Source: Bdellovibrionota bacterium
GTDB lineage: Bacteria > Bdellovibrionota_C > UBA2361 > OMII01
Direction of reading: 5' to 3'
Length of the DNA stretch: 43,293 nt
Assembly: GCA_044356215.1 (NCBI GenBank)
Contig: JBIKWQ010000024.1
Location: 1-43,293 of the forward strand
The notes under the pieces are model-generated. The model saw only the letters and a list, made by a program, of their open reading frames with translations, ran no database searches and was not told where the DNA came from. Positions 1 through 43,293 of this stretch are shown piece by piece. Position 1 is the first letter of the stretch, and every line of letters begins with the position of its first letter. Position numbers and translations under genes: made by a program.

Positions 1-352
1 CATGCAACTTTACAACGGTCATGTATGAGAATCCGTGCTCCTGTGGTGATTCAAGTAACGGAACTACACGATCTTTAAATTCAGCGTGAGGCACCTTACG
101 GGGACGACCAGGGCGCGGTTTCGTCACTACTCCATCTATCCCCCGAGCATTAAACAATGCTATCAGTTTGCGTACTGTGCTCGGTGCGAATCTAGTTAAA
201 TCCTCCACTACAGGACGGGCATAACCGCGGTATAGATAATCAATCACTACAAGACGCTTGTAATCCTCTTGTGTTCGCGCACAATTCATCGCTGTCTCGA
301 TCTTCTCAAGACTCGCATTCTCCCGATTTAACTCATTCTCCTTGCGCCCCAC
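1..352 (-). CDS. IS630-family transposase, N-terminal HTH part (partial; not in ORF track)
   Basis: Manual translation from GTG at 352: MGRKENELNRENASLEKIETAMNCARTQEDYKRLVVIDYLYRGYARPVVEDLTRFAPSTVRKLIALFNARGIDGVVTKPRPGRPRK...ESPQEHGFSYMTVVKLH, open to the edge. The 'GIDG...RPGRPRK' segment is typical of IS630 HTH regions. Confidence 0.8.
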   Translation of the reverse strand, partial: MGRKENELNRENASLEKIETAMNCARTQEDYKRLVVIDYLYRGYARPVVEDLTRFAPSTVRKLIALFNARGIDGVVTKPRPGRPRKVPHAEFKDRVVPLLESPQEHGFSYMTVVKLH

Positions 353-36920: not shown

Positions 36921-38261
36921 TTATTTTACGTATCTACCTATCGCGTAAATAGGAACCACATCAACCCTCACACTCTTGTTGCTGACCTGTGTTGATATAG
37001 TCGAGAAATTCTCTAGTGAAGTTCTTATTGCGTATCCTGCGCCCTTTTCGGCGAGAAAACGATAGAGACTCTGCATCTGTCCCTTCGTGCCCGCCTTCAC
37101 TTCAAGTGGAATAATAACAGGGCCGCGTTGTACTACATAGTCAACCTCAGCAGAGCTTGAAGGCGCCTCTCTGTGCCAGTAAAAGAGTCCGCATTTGATA
37201 TGGTGCGGCGCGTTTGCAATCAATTCAAGGCCGCACACGATCTCCGCGAACGCTGCCCTATTGGAGAATGAAACAGAGTCGTCTAATAGTAGATCAGAGA
37301 GGGGCAGCCCCAGCAGACGATTATATATCCCCAGATCGAACGGGATGCTTTTGAAGCTTTTGGGATCTACCTCCGCCCCCAGGGGGATCGCATTTGCGGA
37401 GCTACGAGTAATTTTGTAAATCAATCCTGCCTGAGACAGGAGGTCAATTGCTTGATCGTAACCTGAGAGCTTAGCGCCGGGGTTGATTCGGGAGTAGACG
37501 AACTTACTTCCAGCTTGTTGAGCAACAGACCGGAGCGTCGCTCTCAGCTTATCTGAGCTGATACGGGTCCCATACTTCGCGAAATCATCCTCATATCCGA
37601 GCACTAACTCCTCTAGCAGCGGAAGACACTCCCGCAGATCTCGAGTATCACAGTATCTCTGCACTACTTTTGGCAAACCTCCAATCATGCAGTAGAGCTT
37701 CATCAGATCCAAAGCTTTGCGATGGAACACAGCATCAAGTGGCGTCTCCAGTGAGGCTTCCCGCAACGCCCGGCCGAATCCATCCCCCGTGAGCGCCTGC
37801 GCGAACTCCTCAAAAAACAGAGGATACATGAAGAGCGACTCAATTCTGCCAACTCCGTAAGACGGAAGATCTCTAAGCGCAAACTCAAGAAGCGAGCCGG
37901 CTGCTACAACGTGCAGCTCGGGAAGCTGTTCATAAAAGAATCTCAGCGCCGTTAATGCCTCAGGGCATTCCTGTATCTCATCGAAGAACAGTAGAGTCTC
38001 ACCTGGCGAGATCGAAGCGTTACAGTATATGGATAGCTTGTCGATGAGGCTCCTCGGTGAAAGGTTTCCTTCCCGAAAGAAGGCTTTAACCTCGGGCGTT
38101 TCTAAAAAATTAATCTCAACAAATGATCTGAAGCTGCTGAGCGCAAACTCCCGAACTGATGACGTTTTGCCAACCTGCCTCGCCCCTCGCAATAGCAAGA
38201 CTCGCCTATCGTGAGCATGCTTCCAATTTTCTAGCGCTGCGGCGATTTTTCTTTTAAGCAT
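36921..38261 (-). CDS. AAA+ ATPase, AAA_14 + DUF4143 (paralog of 1596..2939)
   Basis: GARQVGKT, LLFFDEIQECPEA, 'FYWHRE..SS.AEVDY...PLEVKAG'. Long blocks identical to the first copy. Confidence 0.9.
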   Translation of the reverse strand: MLKRKIAAALENWKHAHDRRVLLLRGARQVGKTSSVREFALSSFRSFVEINFLETPEVKAFFREGNLSPRSLIDKLSIYCNASISPGETLLFFDEIQECPEALTALRFFYEQLPELHVVAAGSLLEFALRDLPSYGVGRIESLFMYPLFFEEFAQALTGDGFGRALREASLETPLDAVFHRKALDLMKLYCMIGGLPKVVQRYCDTRDLRECLPLLEELVLGYEDDFAKYGTRISSDKLRATLRSVAQQAGSKFVYSRINPGAKLSGYDQAIDLLSQAGLIYKITRSSANAIPLGAEVDPKSFKSIPFDLGIYNRLLGLPLSDLLLDDSVSFSNRAAFAEIVCGLELIANAPHHIKCGLFYWHREAPSSSAEVDYVVQRGPVIIPLEVKAGTKGQMQSLYRFLAEKGAGYAIRTSLENFSTISTQVSNKSVRVDVVPIYAIGRYVK

Positions 38262-38278
38262 TTCAACATATTACACCA

Positions 38279-38358
38279 TGCTCGGAAAAATACAAGGCAA
38301 TTTTTACTATCAACTCGGAATTTATAAAGTCTGAAAACAGAGCTTGCTCGGAAAAATA
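38279..38358. repeat. Three CTCGGAA-anchored repeats with 33-bp period upstream of the second AAA_14 gene
   Basis: CTCGGAA at 38281, 38314 and 38347. TGCTCGGAAAAATA is exact at 38279 and 38345. The first unit contains TACAAGGCAAT (38291-38301). Confidence 0.8.
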
Positions 38359-38387
38359 GTGGGCGTTGGGCCCAGCTAGCCCTCAAA

Positions 38388-38412
38388 GACGCGCCTTAGT
38401 CGGGGGTGCCTT
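38388..38412 (-). repeat. Second copy of a 25-bp hairpin motif also found at 4202-4226
   Basis: Reverse complement AAGGCACCCCCGACTAAGGCGCGTC vs AAGGCACCCCCGACTAGGGGGTGTC, 22/25 identical. Confidence 0.7.
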
Positions 38413-38576
38413 CGCATATCTAAGGCTCGTTCCTCTTAAGCCCTCTTTCTCTATGGGGTGAGGGCTTCTTGGCGTTTGTCCGGAGAACGTTTCGGTTCAA
38501 AAATATCGCGCCAAATCAATGCATGTCAATTCAGATGGTTGAGCGCGACATCTTTTCGACTGATATATTATCCTAA

Positions 38577-38813
38577 GTTCACCCCGGCGCTGCTTTGCGT
38601 GATGAGTTGGAGGAGATTGGAGTCAGCCAATCCGCTCTCGCTGAACATATTTAAGTGCTACTCAAAACTATCAATTAAATTTGCCGAGGAAAGCGGGGTA
38701 TCAGCGCTGATATGACGCTAAAGCTCTCGCAGGCTCTCGGCGCTACGCCGTATTTTTGGCTTAATCTCCAAAACAACTGGATGTTAAGTCAGATAAGTGG
38801 CACCAAAAAATAA
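38577..38813 (+). pseudogene. higA: HigA-family antitoxin pseudogene
   Basis: VHPGAALRDELEEIGVSQSALAEHI*VLLKTIN*ICRGKRGISADMTLKLSQALGATPYFWLNLQNNW. TAA stops at 38652 and 38676; no start codon; collinear with 40796-41020. Confidence 0.88.
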
Positions 38814-38920
38814 AGCTACTGACCGCATAGCTACCCGGTTTACCCAGAAGCTATCCTCGCTGTGTTTACATTATTTTTAAGACAGCGTGGTTGCTTGTAG
38901 GGTCCGCCTTTTTACTTAGA

Positions 38921-39006
38921 GAAGAACATGCGAGTTTCATTAGACCTGGTGTCGGGGCATGACGCTCGCGTGACGGGCGCTAGTCCGATCCACGCTCTTG
39001 TTATCC
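38921..39006 (-). other. Degenerate attC-like site at the 3' end of narK
   Basis: Left arm GGATAAC-AAGAG-CGTGGATC-GG-A resembles AGATAAC-AATTG-CATGGATT-TT-A of the 41867 site and contains the narK stop. The right arm pairs poorly. Confidence 0.35.
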
Positions 39007-40278
39007 GTTGCTTGCCTTTGCAGACGGTTCGCTTCCAGAAGTGTCCCCTAAAACCAGACCTCCTTTCCCGATCCAAACGCCTGTCCAAAAACGTTGGGCG
39101 TAGCCTAGTACAAATATTACAACAATTCCCAGTAAGCCAAAACTTAGGAAGCCACCCGAGTAAGAACCGGTCCACTGCTTGGATTGCCCCATCAAGTTGG
39201 GAAGAAGAGACCCTCCAAGAGCGCCGATTTCACCAATCATGCTTCCAGCAACTGCGGTTGTAGTCGGCCAACGAAGCGGGACAAGCTGAAACACAGCGCC
39301 ATTTCCCGCACCGAGCAAACCAAAACAGCACATCAGCAAAATCGTAGTCGTCATAAGGGAGGGCTGGGTGCTTAGCACGAACAACAGAAAAACCGCGGAA
39401 ATCAGTAAAAACTTTAGGGCGACAACCCCACCAAAGCGATCTGCAATATACCCACCAATAATTCGCATAGCGCTGCCTACGAACGCTGCAAGTACCGTAA
39501 GCTGACCTGCCTGCACTTTGGTAACTTGAAATTGTTCGTAAAAAAACGTTGGGAGGAAGCTTGCCAGTCCTATAAATCCCCCGAAAGTTACCACATATAC
39601 TAAGTTAAATACCCACCCATCTGCTTCCCACAAACATTTAATATGAGCTTTGATAGATTGATGAGCCCGGTCTGGAGGTTCCTTGGCAAAAAAAATCATT
39701 ACGATGATTGGGGCAATCATCGCCCACCCTGCAAAGCCGTACACATGCTGCCACCCGTAAATCATTGCCAAGGGCGGCGCGACTAGTGCAGCTATCGCAG
39801 TCCCACTATTTCCGGCTCCAGTAATGCCCATTGCAAGACCTTTAAATGTCTTGGGATACCATCCGGAGCCCAAGGATAGCGCAATACCGAAACTCGCCCC
39901 TGCTACACCTAAAAGAATCCCCATCCAGATAACTCCGTCGTATGATGTCACTAGGAATCGGGCCAACAGACAAGCGACAACGATGGTCAACATCTCAAGG
40001 AGAGCTGAGTTTTTTCTGCCGATATATTGCGAAAGCACACCGAGCGGAAATCGCATAAGCGCCCCAGCAAAAATGGGAACAGAAAGCATGAAACCCGTTT
40101 CAGCTGGAGACAACTTAAAGTGCTCGGTTATAAAGGGCGCCATAGCTCCATTGAGTACCCAGATCGCAAAACAGAAATCGAAGTAAAGAAAAGCCGAAAA
40201 AAGCGTCGGGAAGTGTCCGACTCTCAAGAATGCTTTGGTTTTATTTAGCATAATGCCCAATCGGATCTGATATACCAT
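39001..40278 (-). CDS. NarK/NasA-family nitrate/nitrite MFS transporter
   Basis: GHFPTLFSAFLYFDF, GASFG.AL...W, AMGITGAGNSG, TFGGFIG, GAGNGAVFQLVP nitrate signatures. Start may be the ATG at 40251. Confidence 0.92.
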   Translation of the reverse strand: MVYQIRLGIMLNKTKAFLRVGHFPTLFSAFLYFDFCFAIWVLNGAMAPFITEHFKLSPAETGFMLSVPIFAGALMRFPLGVLSQYIGRKNSALLEMLTIVVACLLARFLVTSYDGVIWMGILLGVAGASFGIALSLGSGWYPKTFKGLAMGITGAGNSGTAIAALVAPPLAMIYGWQHVYGFAGWAMIAPIIVMIFFAKEPPDRAHQSIKAHIKCLWEADGWVFNLVYVVTFGGFIGLASFLPTFFYEQFQVTKVQAGQLTVLAAFVGSAMRIIGGYIADRFGGVVALKFLLISAVFLLFVLSTQPSLMTTTILLMCCFGLLGAGNGAVFQLVPLRWPTTTAVAGSMIGEIGALGGSLLPNLMGQSKQWTGSYSGGFLSFGLLGIVVIFVLGYAQRFWTGVWIGKGGLVLGDTSGSEPSAKASNG

Positions 40279-40382
40279 TCGTTACAAAGCAGTGGCGCTC
40301 GATGTCGGCGCACAGTATTATTCACCAGCTCCCCTAGACAGTCTATCTCGACCCGGAGATCATAAACAACACTTTGATACTC

Positions 40383-40571
40383 CTAGCCCGCGCCGCGGTC
40401 ACGATACAACAGGTTTCCTTGCTGAAAATCTAATTCGACGCCGCCGTCAGCGAGAGTCCGCTTGGAGGGATCTACCGAAGCATACGTTTGCACTTTGGCT
40501 CGAACGAGAAAGTCCCGAAAAACCTGGTCAAAAGCTGGGGTGCCAAGATTTGCTTTTTCTGGATAATTCAT
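40383..40571 (-). pseudogene. Truncated DUF5680-like gene
   Basis: 'FLVRAKVQTYA...DGGVELDFQQGNLLYRDR' resembles the DUF5680 N-terminus; similarity is lost and the frame stops after 62 aa. Confidence 0.55.
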
Positions 40572-40792
40572 AAGTGGGGTTCAGGTATAACGCTAACGAT
40601 AACCCGAAACTCGCCATCAGGGCGACATCTCGAGTTGATTCAATCGATGTCATGTTGCCAATGCCCACCGTATTCATCCCCTCCGGTACAATGCATAAGG
40701 AGTAACTCGTAAAAGCCACGCTATTAGTCTCCACCTCTTGGTCACGTACACGTGTCCACGACGAGCCTTCAGAGCCCGTACAATCTACGACG

Positions 40793-41020
40793 CCAGTCCA
40801 TCCCGGTGCTGTTTTGCGCGATGAGCTTGAAGAAATAGGGGTTAGCCAATCCTCTCTTGCTGAACATATTGGCGTACTACCCAAGACTATCAACGAAATT
40901 TGTCGCGGGAAGCGAGGTATTAGCGCTGATATGGCGCTAAAGCTCTCACAGGCTCTCGGCGCAACTCCGTATTTTTGGCTTAATCTGCAAAACAACTGGG
41001 AGCTGAGTCAGAACATCTAG
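40793..41020 (+). CDS. higA: HigA-family antitoxin (Xre HTH); start codon uncertain, possibly a pseudogene
   Basis: PVHPGAVLRDELEEIGVSQSSLAEHIGVLPKTINEICRGKRGISADMALKLSQALGATPYFWLNLQ. No ATG/GTG upstream of the HPG motif before the in-frame stop at 40703. Confidence 0.8.
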   Translation, partial: PVHPGAVLRDELEEIGVSQSSLAEHIGVLPKTINEICRGKRGISADMALKLSQALGATPYFWLNLQNNWELSQNI

Positions 41021-41314
41021 GGGCCGAAAGTACTAGACGCAACTTCTCTAGAGAGACATCGATATATAGGCATGGGCTCAAAGCAGCCCCTAAGGTGTTA
41101 TTTAATTCTGTTAGATTGGTGATTTGATTGCGGCAACTTAGCTACACGACCGAGAACCGGTATCTTCTCAGGATCCGCCGATTCCACTGCTTAGATGGCA
41201 CGCGGCGTCCATGAGATATGAGCGTGTCTGAAATTGTCGCAGTCATGTCAGACGTGCCACCTCTGGAGCGACTGACCGCCAGATATTCGAAACCGGACGA
41301 AGCCCCATAGAGCT

Positions 41315-41872
41315 ATGAAGAAGCCAAAAGCACAAAATCGGATTGTTCAACAAAGCCATTTATCCACCCGCCCACATATCATACTGATTCGTGGGCATAG
41401 AGTAATAATAGACTCAGATTTGGCGGAGCTTTATGGCGTAAAGACAAAACGTCTCAAAGAGCAGGTGAGGCGAAATGGTGAGCGTTTTCCAACTGACTTC
41501 GTCCTGCAATTAACGAAAGCCGAAACGGACGAGGTGGTCGCAAAGTGCGACCACCTTCAAAAGCTCAAATTTTCGAGTATCTTACCGCTTGCTTTTACGG
41601 AGCACGGGGCGATCATGGCCGCGACGGTTCTTAATAGTAAGGTTGCAATCGAGACAAGCATCCTAGTTGTCAGAGCTTTCATTCACGCTCGCGAGATTAT
41701 CTCTGAACATCGCGAGCTGAAGTTGCGACTAGAACGACTGGAGGAGCGAGTCGCTCGAGGATTTCACGATACTGAGGATGAACTACAAGCTGTCCGCTTT
41801 GCGATTCAACAATTGATGGATCTACCGCCGCCAAGCTCAAAAAAACCGATTGGATTCGGTAGAAAGGGATAA
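41315..41872 (+). CDS. ORF6N domain DNA-binding protein
   Basis: IRGHRVIIDSDLAELYGV.TKRL..QVRRN.ERFP.DF, AFTEHGAIMAATVLNS, C-terminal PIGF. Confidence 0.92.
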   Translation: MKKPKAQNRIVQQSHLSTRPHIILIRGHRVIIDSDLAELYGVKTKRLKEQVRRNGERFPTDFVLQLTKAETDEVVAKCDHLQKLKFSSILPLAFTEHGAIMAATVLNSKVAIETSILVVRAFIHAREIISEHRELKLRLERLEERVARGFHDTEDELQAVRFAIQQLMDLPPPSSKKPIGFGRKG

Positions 41873-41925
41873 CCTTTGCATGATTTTGGCGCAAACAGCG
41901 CCTAAAATCCATGCAATTGTTATCT
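41867..41925 (-). other. attC-like integron cassette recombination site (59 bp)
   Basis: Minus strand AGATAAC-AATTG-CATGGATT-TT-A-GGCGC-TGTTT-GCGCC-AA-AATCATG-CAAAG-GTTATCC: R''/5/L''(8)/.../L'(7)/5/R', with two extrahelical bases on the expected arm. Confidence 0.7.
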
Positions 41926-43079
41926 GATCCGTCCGCAAACAACCAAATATCAGCGAAGCGCCTCGTTTCTCCCATTCTTAATCATTCGCAAAACATGTCT
42001 TGGTCCGTTGAGGTCCCCGTGCATATCAAATGAGTAGGCCCCAAATATACCTTGAAATGTGCCAGAACGGAGATAGTCGGCTAGCGTCACGCCAGATTTA
42101 CTGCTATCGCGCACCAGACGAAAGGCCTCGAAAACACCCGGGAAGGTGAAAGACCAGCCGCTGATTGGCCCAAATTTAGATTGATACTCGCTATACACCC
42201 GCTGTCCCTCTTCACTTAGAAGTTCGGCCGCCCCTGGAAAATCAAGAAAGATAATGCCGTCAGCCAAGGGGCCTGCAGAAGCGAGAAAGCTAGCAGAGCC
42301 GGGAATGTAGGCCGCATATAATTTGGGAGTCATTCCCAGCTCCCGTAGCTGCTTGAGTAATGCGGTCAAACTCTGCTCACTCTGGGTGTTCAGGAACAGC
42401 GCCTCGCCATTTGATTGTTTTATTCGGAGCAAAAGAGAACGAAAGTCATACTGCTGAGGCTGAAAAAGCTCGTTATGAGTCTTGAGTCCTATGGAATCGG
42501 CGGCGATTTTAAAATCTCTCCAGAATTCCGATGGATAGTCAGCTTCCTCAGTAAGCACTGTGACTGCTTTATGCCGCTCCTTGATAGCGTGGACCAGAAA
42601 AGCTGCCCCGACTGCATCACTCAATGACATGCGAAACACACCAAGCCGCGACAATTTACTTGGCGTGCCCATAGTTATGACTGTTACACCAGCACGTTTA
42701 TAAATCGGAGCAGCAGCCAATACTGATTGCCCGCACATAACGTACACCTGATTAACTTTATCTATCGCAGTCAATTTCTGCGCTGCGGTTACCGCGCTTT
42801 TTGGCTCACAACGATCGTCCTCAAAAATCAGTCGAACTGACCCGCCGCTCAGTTTTTCGTTCGCGAATGTAAGGGTATTTCGAACATCAACTCCCCACCC
42901 GGCTCCATTACCCGATAACGGAAGCGACACTCCCAACGTCAGTGGGCCAGCGCTCGCGGGTTGCGTAAATATGAGGAGGAGGAGGAGGACTATTCGAATT
43001 TTCATTGATCTAGCCAGTCACAAGTATGTGCTATTCCGAAACCTAATTGTGCCAGCCGCGTTAAAGCTGCATCAGATAA
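41873..43079 (-). mobile_element. Putative integron gene cassette carrying the LivK-like gene
   Basis: Starts at G^TTATCTGAT (43080-43071, minus), a perfect 10-bp complement of ATCAGATAAC at its own attC R'' end (41928-41919). One ORF fills the unit. Confidence 0.6.
41950..43005 (-). CDS. ABC transporter substrate-binding protein, LivJ/LivK (periplasmic binding protein type 1) family
   Basis: Signal peptide, LPLSG..A..G, EDDRCEPKSAVTAAQKL, DFRSLL, FQG..G...FD..GD. No permease or ATPase genes adjacent. Confidence 0.85.
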   Translation of the reverse strand: MKIRIVLLLLLIFTQPASAGPLTLGVSLPLSGNGAGWGVDVRNTLTFANEKLSGGSVRLIFEDDRCEPKSAVTAAQKLTAIDKVNQVYVMCGQSVLAAAPIYKRAGVTVITMGTPSKLSRLGVFRMSLSDAVGAAFLVHAIKERHKAVTVLTEEADYPSEFWRDFKIAADSIGLKTHNELFQPQQYDFRSLLLRIKQSNGEALFLNTQSEQSLTALLKQLRELGMTPKLYAAYIPGSASFLASAGPLADGIIFLDFPGAAELLSEEGQRVYSEYQSKFGPISGWSFTFPGVFEAFRLVRDSSKSGVTLADYLRSGTFQGIFGAYSFDMHGDLNGPRHVLRMIKNGRNEALR

Positions 43080-43293
43080 CATAGTATTGTCCCGATCCGC
43101 CCATCTAGGCAATCCGGACGCTGTTTTCAGGTTAGCGCACCCCCTCATACTACTCAATCGAAACAATAGGGCGTCGCAGTTCTTTTTTTATCCCCCTCAG
43201 GAAGTCGGCCATTTGGAGTATTTTTGGGGTCTTAGACGGTTTATTTGGGGCTATCTGACAGGTGGATAGGTGAATTTGGGGAGGAAAAAATAT

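Follow-up and report, generated by a model that had tools for sequence, protein, structure and literature searches.

The closest described counterpart of the locus analyzed here is the first-position cassette of class 1 integrons. In the accessible parts of the sources on these elements (PMC4889954, PMC12901181), an attI site with an L box, a 5-nt spacer and a G|TT crossover is preceded by a promoter and followed by a promoterless open reading frame in sense orientation, the start of the cassette is complementary to the R'' box, and the attC site has two extrahelical bases; our cassette has these features, with a promoter-like stretch in the place of the promoter. It departs from the class 1 paradigm in that no intI gene was found adjacent to it, its R boxes read GTTATCY, the bulged base is a C on the bottom strand and its cargo is a transporter subunit. 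Cassettes with attC sites but no adjacent intI, in genomes that carry an intI elsewhere, are known as CALIN or SALIN elements (PMC4889954; 10.1101/2022.09.11.507474), and our locus resembles them in this respect. Unlike them, it has kept an attI and a promoter-like stretch; these are present in many copies per genome and are maintained in different species, while the first cassettes change. The origins listed for CALINs include the loss of intI (PMC4889954). Since attI is unknown for most integrons and cannot be searched for in them, IntegronFinder is blind to a retained attI (PMC4889954). Mobilization of CALINs in trans and conserved CALIN loci have been reported (PMC9668308, 10.1101/2025.06.18.660453), and the available parts of these two papers make no mention of retained, multi-copy attI sites.

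With respect to cargo, the known relatives are the HAAT importers (LivKHMGF), which share with our system the PF13458 fold, the LivH/LivM permeases and a LivG-like ATPase; here, a genome has up to 35 binding proteins for one operon with a single ATPase gene, and some of them are mobile cassettes. Integron cassettes have been reported to be enriched in signal peptides (PMC10661359). A term search of the available text of that paper and of PMC7370490 returned no solute-binding-protein cassettes; their supplements could list some. We found no description of multi-copy orphan attI platforms or of recurrent LivK-type cassettes in the open-access literature, supplements aside. New in our analysis are the signs of reshuffling seen at the junctions themselves, a binding protein as cargo and a unit with its own attI that several species have in common.

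The window, i.e., the whole 43,293-nt stretch of DNA that was analyzed and on which the cassette parts are numbered, contains a gene cassette of 1207 bp (41873..43079, minus strand), which begins with the TT beyond the attI crossover and ends with the G of the R' box. Upstream lies a type-B attI core (43078..43107, minus strand) with a conserved TAGATG..GATC box, an L box at 43092–43086, a 5-nt spacer and a G|TT crossover at 43080/43079, and downstream a 59-nt attC site (41867..41925, minus strand). The sequence GTTATCTGAT at 43080–43071, which lies 66–75 nt upstream of the start codon (ATG at 43005), is exactly complementary to 41928–41919, so that the 10-bp match between the upstream core and the R'' end that had been proposed was confirmed. 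The cassette encodes a 351-residue LivK/LivJ-like solute-binding protein of the HAAT family (41950..43005, minus strand), and no transporter gene adjoins it, as the original prediction had it. It is virtually certain that the LivK-like gene is a true integron cassette, arranged attI–gene–attC and in first position.

The assignment of the protein came from Pfam, AlphaFold and Foldseek. It matched PF13458 with 94 bits (cut-off 31.7), and its AlphaFold model had the two-lobed type I binding-protein fold (pLDDT 93), the best Foldseek match being LivK of T. maritima (3td9; TM 0.83, 22% identity). Identity to solved HAAT members was about 20%, and the N-terminus, judged by eye, is hydrophobic and resembles a signal peptide. 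There was no close orthologue among 40 relatives (best identity 41%), and protein-pattern scans of metagenome and genome contigs returned relatives at 24–33% identity only.

A LivK-like gene had been considered unusual cargo for a cassette, which did not hold within the genus: 14 LivK-like ORFs lay on the cassette strand downstream of attI, against 0.4 expected in 210 kb, a statistic that is inflated by kin since the test treats kin and shared cassettes as independent. About five of the 14 had a canonical attC behind them, as judged by eye, and another three or four a degenerate one, and a LivK-like gene was the first cassette at 5 of the 79 attI sites described below. The window genome has 35 PF13458 genes, the upper end of the genus range (1–35). 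These paralogues are very divergent (20–38% identity), and in a quick tree the cassette-borne and other paralogues were interspersed, with near-identical cassette pairs in different species. Only the window cassette among the 35 has an attC; of the other 34, one had the core match taken as the signature of a former cassette, which is not above background (26 of 1542 control ORFs). The idea that all 35 LivK-like genes are former cassettes was thus not supported.

The genome has a single livH-livM-livG operon, with one ATPase gene, no binding protein and no livF. This operon was conserved in the loci of 20 relatives, 15 of which had no adjacent LivK gene and five of which had a PF13458-family gene beside it. 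The view of the cassette as a binding protein without a transporter holds for the surroundings of the gene, and the likely partner livHMG lies elsewhere in the genome. With 35 LivK-like genes set against one livHMG operon that has none beside it, the cassette is likely to serve as a plug-in for a shared importer. When LivH, LivM and the cassette protein were modeled as a complex, the score was 0.50, compared to 0.15 for the best of three controls, and the runs agreed in at least 75% of the contacts, with partner pLDDT of at least 77. Among solved pairs, 116 of 157 reached the mark used for such scores, compared to 2 of 215 mismatched pairs; only 18 of the 157 did so with scores of 0.60 or below, along with both of the mismatched ones. 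The value of 0.50 is therefore a weak indication, which may reflect family likeness. We infer, with somewhat more confidence than doubt, that the protein, once exported, would bind a small solute of an amino-acid-like or aromatic type and pass it on to LivHM.

Alternatively, the cassette may be real while its protein serves in sensing, with a chemoreceptor or kinase as its partner, or in solute sequestration, rather than in transport by LivHMG. Binding proteins often stimulate signaling receptors (PMC8050422, in the part available), and 35 very divergent paralogues are many for one permease pair; the missing livF and the weak complex prediction point in the same direction. However, livHMG was present in all 20 loci, mostly without its own binding protein, and the binding proteins that do adjoin it belong to the PF13458 family, which makes a role outside transport the less likely reading, with sensing as a serious rival.

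The explanation that we prefer, and which as a whole we consider reasonably likely, is that the LivK-like cassette occupies the first position after an attI platform that has a promoter-like stretch and beside which no integrase gene was found, and that its product would act as an exchangeable binding subunit for the only LivH-LivM-LivG importer of the genome. The cargo of the V. cholerae integron has been reported to be functionally isolated from its host (PMC11551772, in the part available). If the binding protein needs a host permease, it would be a counter-example to such isolated cargo, with integrons tuning the nutrient uptake of freshwater bacteria.

The upstream junction, which the original prediction had taken for a cassette core, retained its 10-bp complement on closer analysis, yet it turned out to be a full attI with a promoter-like stretch instead of a bare core. 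The segment 43075–43166 has four relatives in the genome (on contigs C5, C51, C55 and C130), and the likeness among the five copies ends at G|TT, each being followed by different DNA. The same sequence is found directly upstream of intI in two relatives (G004 and G050). A type-B attI model (R1), trained only on 16 intI-adjacent sites, scored the window attI at 54 bits and yielded 75 matches in 26 of 35 genus genomes, including the 16 training sequences; in other families of the order, 55 genomes had no match. A type-A model (R2, four training sites) had 15 matches in 9 of the 35 genus genomes. The window genome, which in total has one intact intI and eight attI-like sites, accounted for three of these: one next to its intact intI, one on C9 and one at window 40312–40389. 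By its occurrence beside intI in complete integrons, the end of likeness at G|TT and its position at the head of cassettes, the upstream junction is very probably a real attI.

Within the attI region, a TTG and a TA..T at 17-nt spacing were conserved in the 16 intI-adjacent sites and in the five local attI copies, which suggests a Pc-like promoter at 43129..43157 on the minus strand (-35 at 43157–43152, 17-nt spacer, -10 at 43134–43129), pointing into the cassette. A consensus promoter scan did not call the stretch 43157–43129. The possibility that the upstream site is a second attC was rejected, as it forms only a weak hairpin (-7 to -8.5 kcal/mol), which the five copies do not conserve. Type-B attI sites in the genome (G000 C51:417, C55:58260, C74:14422) and in relatives are preceded, at a distance of about 170 bp, by a 24-bp palindrome, TAGATG-N4-GATC-N4-CATCTA, whose left half recurs beside the attI L box; it is a candidate binding site for an integrase or regulator.

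The two models were applied to the 35 genus genomes, and the loci of all but the two weakest R1 matches were re-scanned. Of 86 hits, seven without GTT at the crossover were dropped, among them the type-A site of the window, leaving 79 sites in 27 genomes, which are fragmented assemblies in which kin count as separate sites. Seventeen of these sites lay beside a full intI and 15 beside a truncated one, 38 had no trace of intI with at least 1 kb of upstream sequence, and nine were at contig edges. For sites with a detectable first attC no more than 1.9 kb away from attI, the R'' of that attC was compared with the crossover heptamer. The two were exactly complementary at 20 of 31 testable sites that lack a full intI and at 8 of 9 full integrons. 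The shuffle mean for the former count was 2.5, and none of 10,000 shuffles reached 20. This complementarity is the signature of attC × attI insertion.

At one and the same locus, a full integron in one species may correspond to a truncated or absent intI in another (G021/G048, G046/G010), and solo attI sites persisted at one locus in four, three and two species, with first cassettes that had no detectable likeness between species. The nearest kin of 37 solo sites was the intact platform of the same genome in 16 cases and that of another genome in 21. This split does not support a single origin; both copying within genomes and decay of foreign integrons seem to contribute. A retained attI with its promoter, invisible to current tools, can provide a testable origin for many integrase-less cassette clusters.

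Several other features were observed around these sites. Transposase fragments, which we take to be IS91-like, lay within 2.5 kb upstream of six attI sites (L129, L132, L131, L071, L130 and L185), at three of them where intI would lie; such elements could delete intI or move platforms. Two loci (L069 in G014 C93 and L073 in G004 C33) were tandem platforms, with a ruvX-like fragment and attI present repeatedly in a single array, and with the 3' end of a second intI directly behind an array. The first cassette at the C130 attI (G000 C130:406-1929) encodes a 507-residue ATP-dependent nuclease-like protein, presumably of the OLD family and a possible defense gene. It is followed by an inverted toxin-antitoxin cassette, which is the first cassette at C51.

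A search of the genome with TIGR02249 gave six matches, of which one exceeded the cut-off (C13; 436 vs. 265 bits); an intI above the cut-off was found in 21 of the 35 genus genomes. The intact gene (G000 C13:23679-25067) encodes an IntI of 462 residues, which at both termini is longer than the family model with its 315 positions, and is followed by a cassette and an attC. In a quick tree, this IntI belonged to clade A, whereas the type-B attI accompanies clade-B IntI, no full gene for which was found in the 96% complete assembly. Integrases have been reported to prefer their cognate attI, which they recognize by its sequence, whereas attC is recognized by structure only (PMC8191803, in the part available). 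Shuffling of attC sites would therefore be open to the resident clade-A IntI, while new capture at the window attI is less certain. Taken jointly, it is fairly likely that the platform is a left-over or copied clade-B attI, that attC × attC exchange in trans, through the genome's clade-A IntI, would be possible, and that new capture at the window attI would probably need a visiting clade-B IntI.

The contig ends in an insertion-sequence-like repeat (43167..43293), which has eight matches in the genome, begins 87 nt upstream of the crossover and breaks the contig where intI would lie, for which reason the window attI was counted among the nine edge sites. With only 214 nt of sequence upstream of the attI available, the array might belong to an ordinary complete integron, with its intI beyond the insertion sequence or unassembled. 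In one freshwater run (X3, below) the platform lacks the insertion sequence and continues as a native platform, and 5' remnants of clade-B intI occur at C74 and in the window, as such an integron would have it. Against this, apart from the lack of a full clade-B intI in the assembly, the sister sites on C5, C51 and C55 run into chromosomal genes over 18–90 kb upstream, and 38 of the 79 genus sites are without intI trace. A complete integron is thus improbable, and the window attI probably has no adjacent integrase, an unassembled intI being possible at the contig edge.

Three observations concern decay and contig breaks elsewhere in the genome. The remnant at G000 C74:14133-14560 is a decayed clade-B platform with intI residues 1–63 and the upstream palindrome, its attI part replaced by a 96-bp repeat. 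This MITE-like palindromic repeat of about 96 bp, found at G000 C112:1-96 and well over 100 other places, lies at many contig ends, and its end resembles that of the insertion sequence at window 43167. Finally, a common element directly follows an R' box reading GTTGAAC in three arrays and at one chromosomal gene (G000 C13:25982-26107, C9:1-126, C55:59535-59658 and C109:1-127); all four contigs break there, and the element may be an attC-targeting insertion element or a multi-copy cassette.

Single cassettes inserted by IntI at attG sites are common (10.1101/2022.09.11.507474, in the part available) and no intI is near, which would fit a lone cassette placed at a random chromosomal GWT site. 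However, our cassette is flanked on the left by a repeated element of 100 nt, the copies of which cease to match at G|TT and which in relatives forms the attI of intact integrons, i.e., the left junction is an attI and not an attG, so that this alternative is contradicted and very improbable.

The junctions were then compared with natural samples. Of 24 sequencing runs listed (lake, freshwater and one wastewater), none of them RNA, six had at least half of the sequence words, and contigs of four runs were compared, one of which (X1) may be the source. In run X3, a 934-nt contig covers 41868–42539 and has unlike DNA beyond 41868, and in X7 a 508-nt contig covers 41869–42321 with 55 unlike letters beyond. 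Unlike DNA thus sets in at 41868 (X3) and 41869 (X7), in both cases inside R' and after the crossover between the G and TT; what follows in X3 and X7 matches neither the window nor the other run. On the attI side, the cassette is linked in an X2 contig with an attI, the 65 intervening letters fitting the C130 copy in length, and the upstream end of the cassette in X7 continues into a C51/C55-like attI variant. Run X3 also holds the window attI without the insertion sequence. Changing neighbors, predicted for a mobile cassette, were thus seen at both ends in contigs of X2, X3 and X7; these contigs have depths of 3–8 and may come from related strains. Two independent samples, from lakes or fresh water, thus have the gene and its attC with other DNA following where the crossover had been predicted. 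Since the C92 and C130 attI copies have a common 31-nt core and the same insertion-sequence end, the assembly may have swapped which copy heads the cassette. The joint of an excised circle (41873/43079) was not present among the sample contigs, which drop rare forms. Another X3 contig, short and weak, matches the ORF6N gene downstream of the cassette up to 41873 and then has 25 unlike letters.

The attC site consists, on the minus strand, of R'' (41925–41919, AGATAAC), 5 nt, L'' (41913–41906, CATGGATT, 8 nt), a center, L' (41885–41879, AATCATG, 7 nt), 5 nt and R' (41873–41867, GTTATCC), giving the 7-5-8..7-5-7 geometry. L'' and L' pair at 7 of 7 positions with one G looped out (41910, or the adjoining G at 41909), and another base, the A at 41903, is left unpaired seven nt further along the same R''/L'' arm; read as bulges of the bottom strand, the extrahelical bases are T-N6-C. 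The full 7/7 pairing occurs in the minus orientation only, and the extrahelical bases thereby fix the orientation of the site, with the crossover between 41873 and 41872 (G and TT of R'). The site is an inverted repeat R''(..AAC)-L''...L'-R'(GTT..) within the 57–141 bp range, whose bottom strand folds with an energy of about -19.7 kcal/mol. It was the only equally strong site in the window, and none occurred in 200 dinucleotide-preserving shuffles (both strands). An Rfam search of 38000–43293 gave no relevant match. Sequence and folds thus bear out the 59-bp geometry, and the two unpaired bases on one arm, the orientation, the crossover points and the unusual bulged base are as the original prediction had them. 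Assignment of the attC to the ORF6N gene, i.e., the opposite cassette orientation, was rejected because the bulges would fall on the wrong arm.

Although ORF6N and the LivK-like gene converge on the hairpin, there is hardly any chance that it is only a bidirectional terminator, since it lacks T-tracts, was not called in a terminator scan, has the exact attC geometry that no shuffle produced and marks the point inside R' at which neighboring DNA switches in natural samples, in a genome that has an intI and further attC sites.

Those further sites include the one after the cassette on the intact-intI contig C13, which has a G-type bulge like that of the window attC. The proposed lineage-specific attC family was not supported, however, by a comparison of 60 attC sites gathered in the genus, and a homogeneous family was rejected: their lengths were 51–114 nt, position 4 of L'' was G in 31, C in 27 and T in two, and the nearest of them scored only 38 of 59 against the window attC. 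With R' starting GTTAT in 45 of the 60, the sequences show a lineage bias and not a repeat family. The G at the bulge on the top strand means a C on the bottom strand, and such a T-N6-C site has been described as rare among known or clinical cassettes, yet was found to raise excision (PMC3053210, in the part available). By sequence, the deviation in the R boxes (GTTATCY) and the bulge is real and compatible with activity.

The next unit of the array (41014..41872, minus strand) contains an inverted ORF6N gene (41315–41872, plus strand), a 5' remnant of a clade-B intI (41080–41256, plus strand; residues about 9–67) and a promoter region. The stretch 41873–41014 was 94.5% and 93.8% identical to two relatives (G019 and G047, respectively) over about 860 nt, whereas their livHMG DNA was 64% identical to that of the window genome; from this contrast we infer a recent transfer of a cassette-like unit with its capture site. 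In both relatives the unit begins at G|TT, behind an attC-like site other than that of the window, and closes with a complete attI that has other cassettes after it. It resembles the delta-attI-type and attI-gene-attI cassettes of class 1 and 2 integrons (PMC12901181, in the part available) in being an array unit with an attI-derived downstream site, and differs in carrying a whole promoter region, an intI fragment and, in G019 and G047, a complete attI that heads further cassettes. A cassette-like unit that moves between species with its own promoter and attI would be a concrete route for the multiplication of capture sites. For the genus, we tentatively propose a distributed integron, in which many promoter-attI pads, kept after integrase loss and partly spread as attI-bearing cassettes, would be reloaded in trans, with swapped binding subunits on one ABC importer; this is less likely than our reading of the window itself. 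If true, cassette shuffling would reprogram nutrient uptake in the genus, through cassettes that work only via a host-encoded partner.

Further downstream, a second, type-A attI-like site (40312..40389, minus strand) is kin to the attI beside the intact intI, but its junction is not GTT. A degenerate attC (38957..39006, minus strand), whose R' begins GTC, lies at the stop codon of a Pfam MFS_1 transporter gene (39001–40278, minus strand), which we take to be NarK-like. Lying between these two sites, the gene is possibly a second transporter cassette, now immobilized. The window array thus has one canonical and one degenerate attC 2.9 kb apart, with an intI remnant inside and a contig edge. Two HigA-like antitoxin genes (HTH_3), 83% identical, are found at 40795–41020 and 38576–38793 (plus strand), with no toxin gene seen beside either. 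The copy at 38576–38793 has stop codons, and with that at 40795–41020 a cassette-like G|TT junction begins, where the unit with ORF6N and the intI remnant ends.
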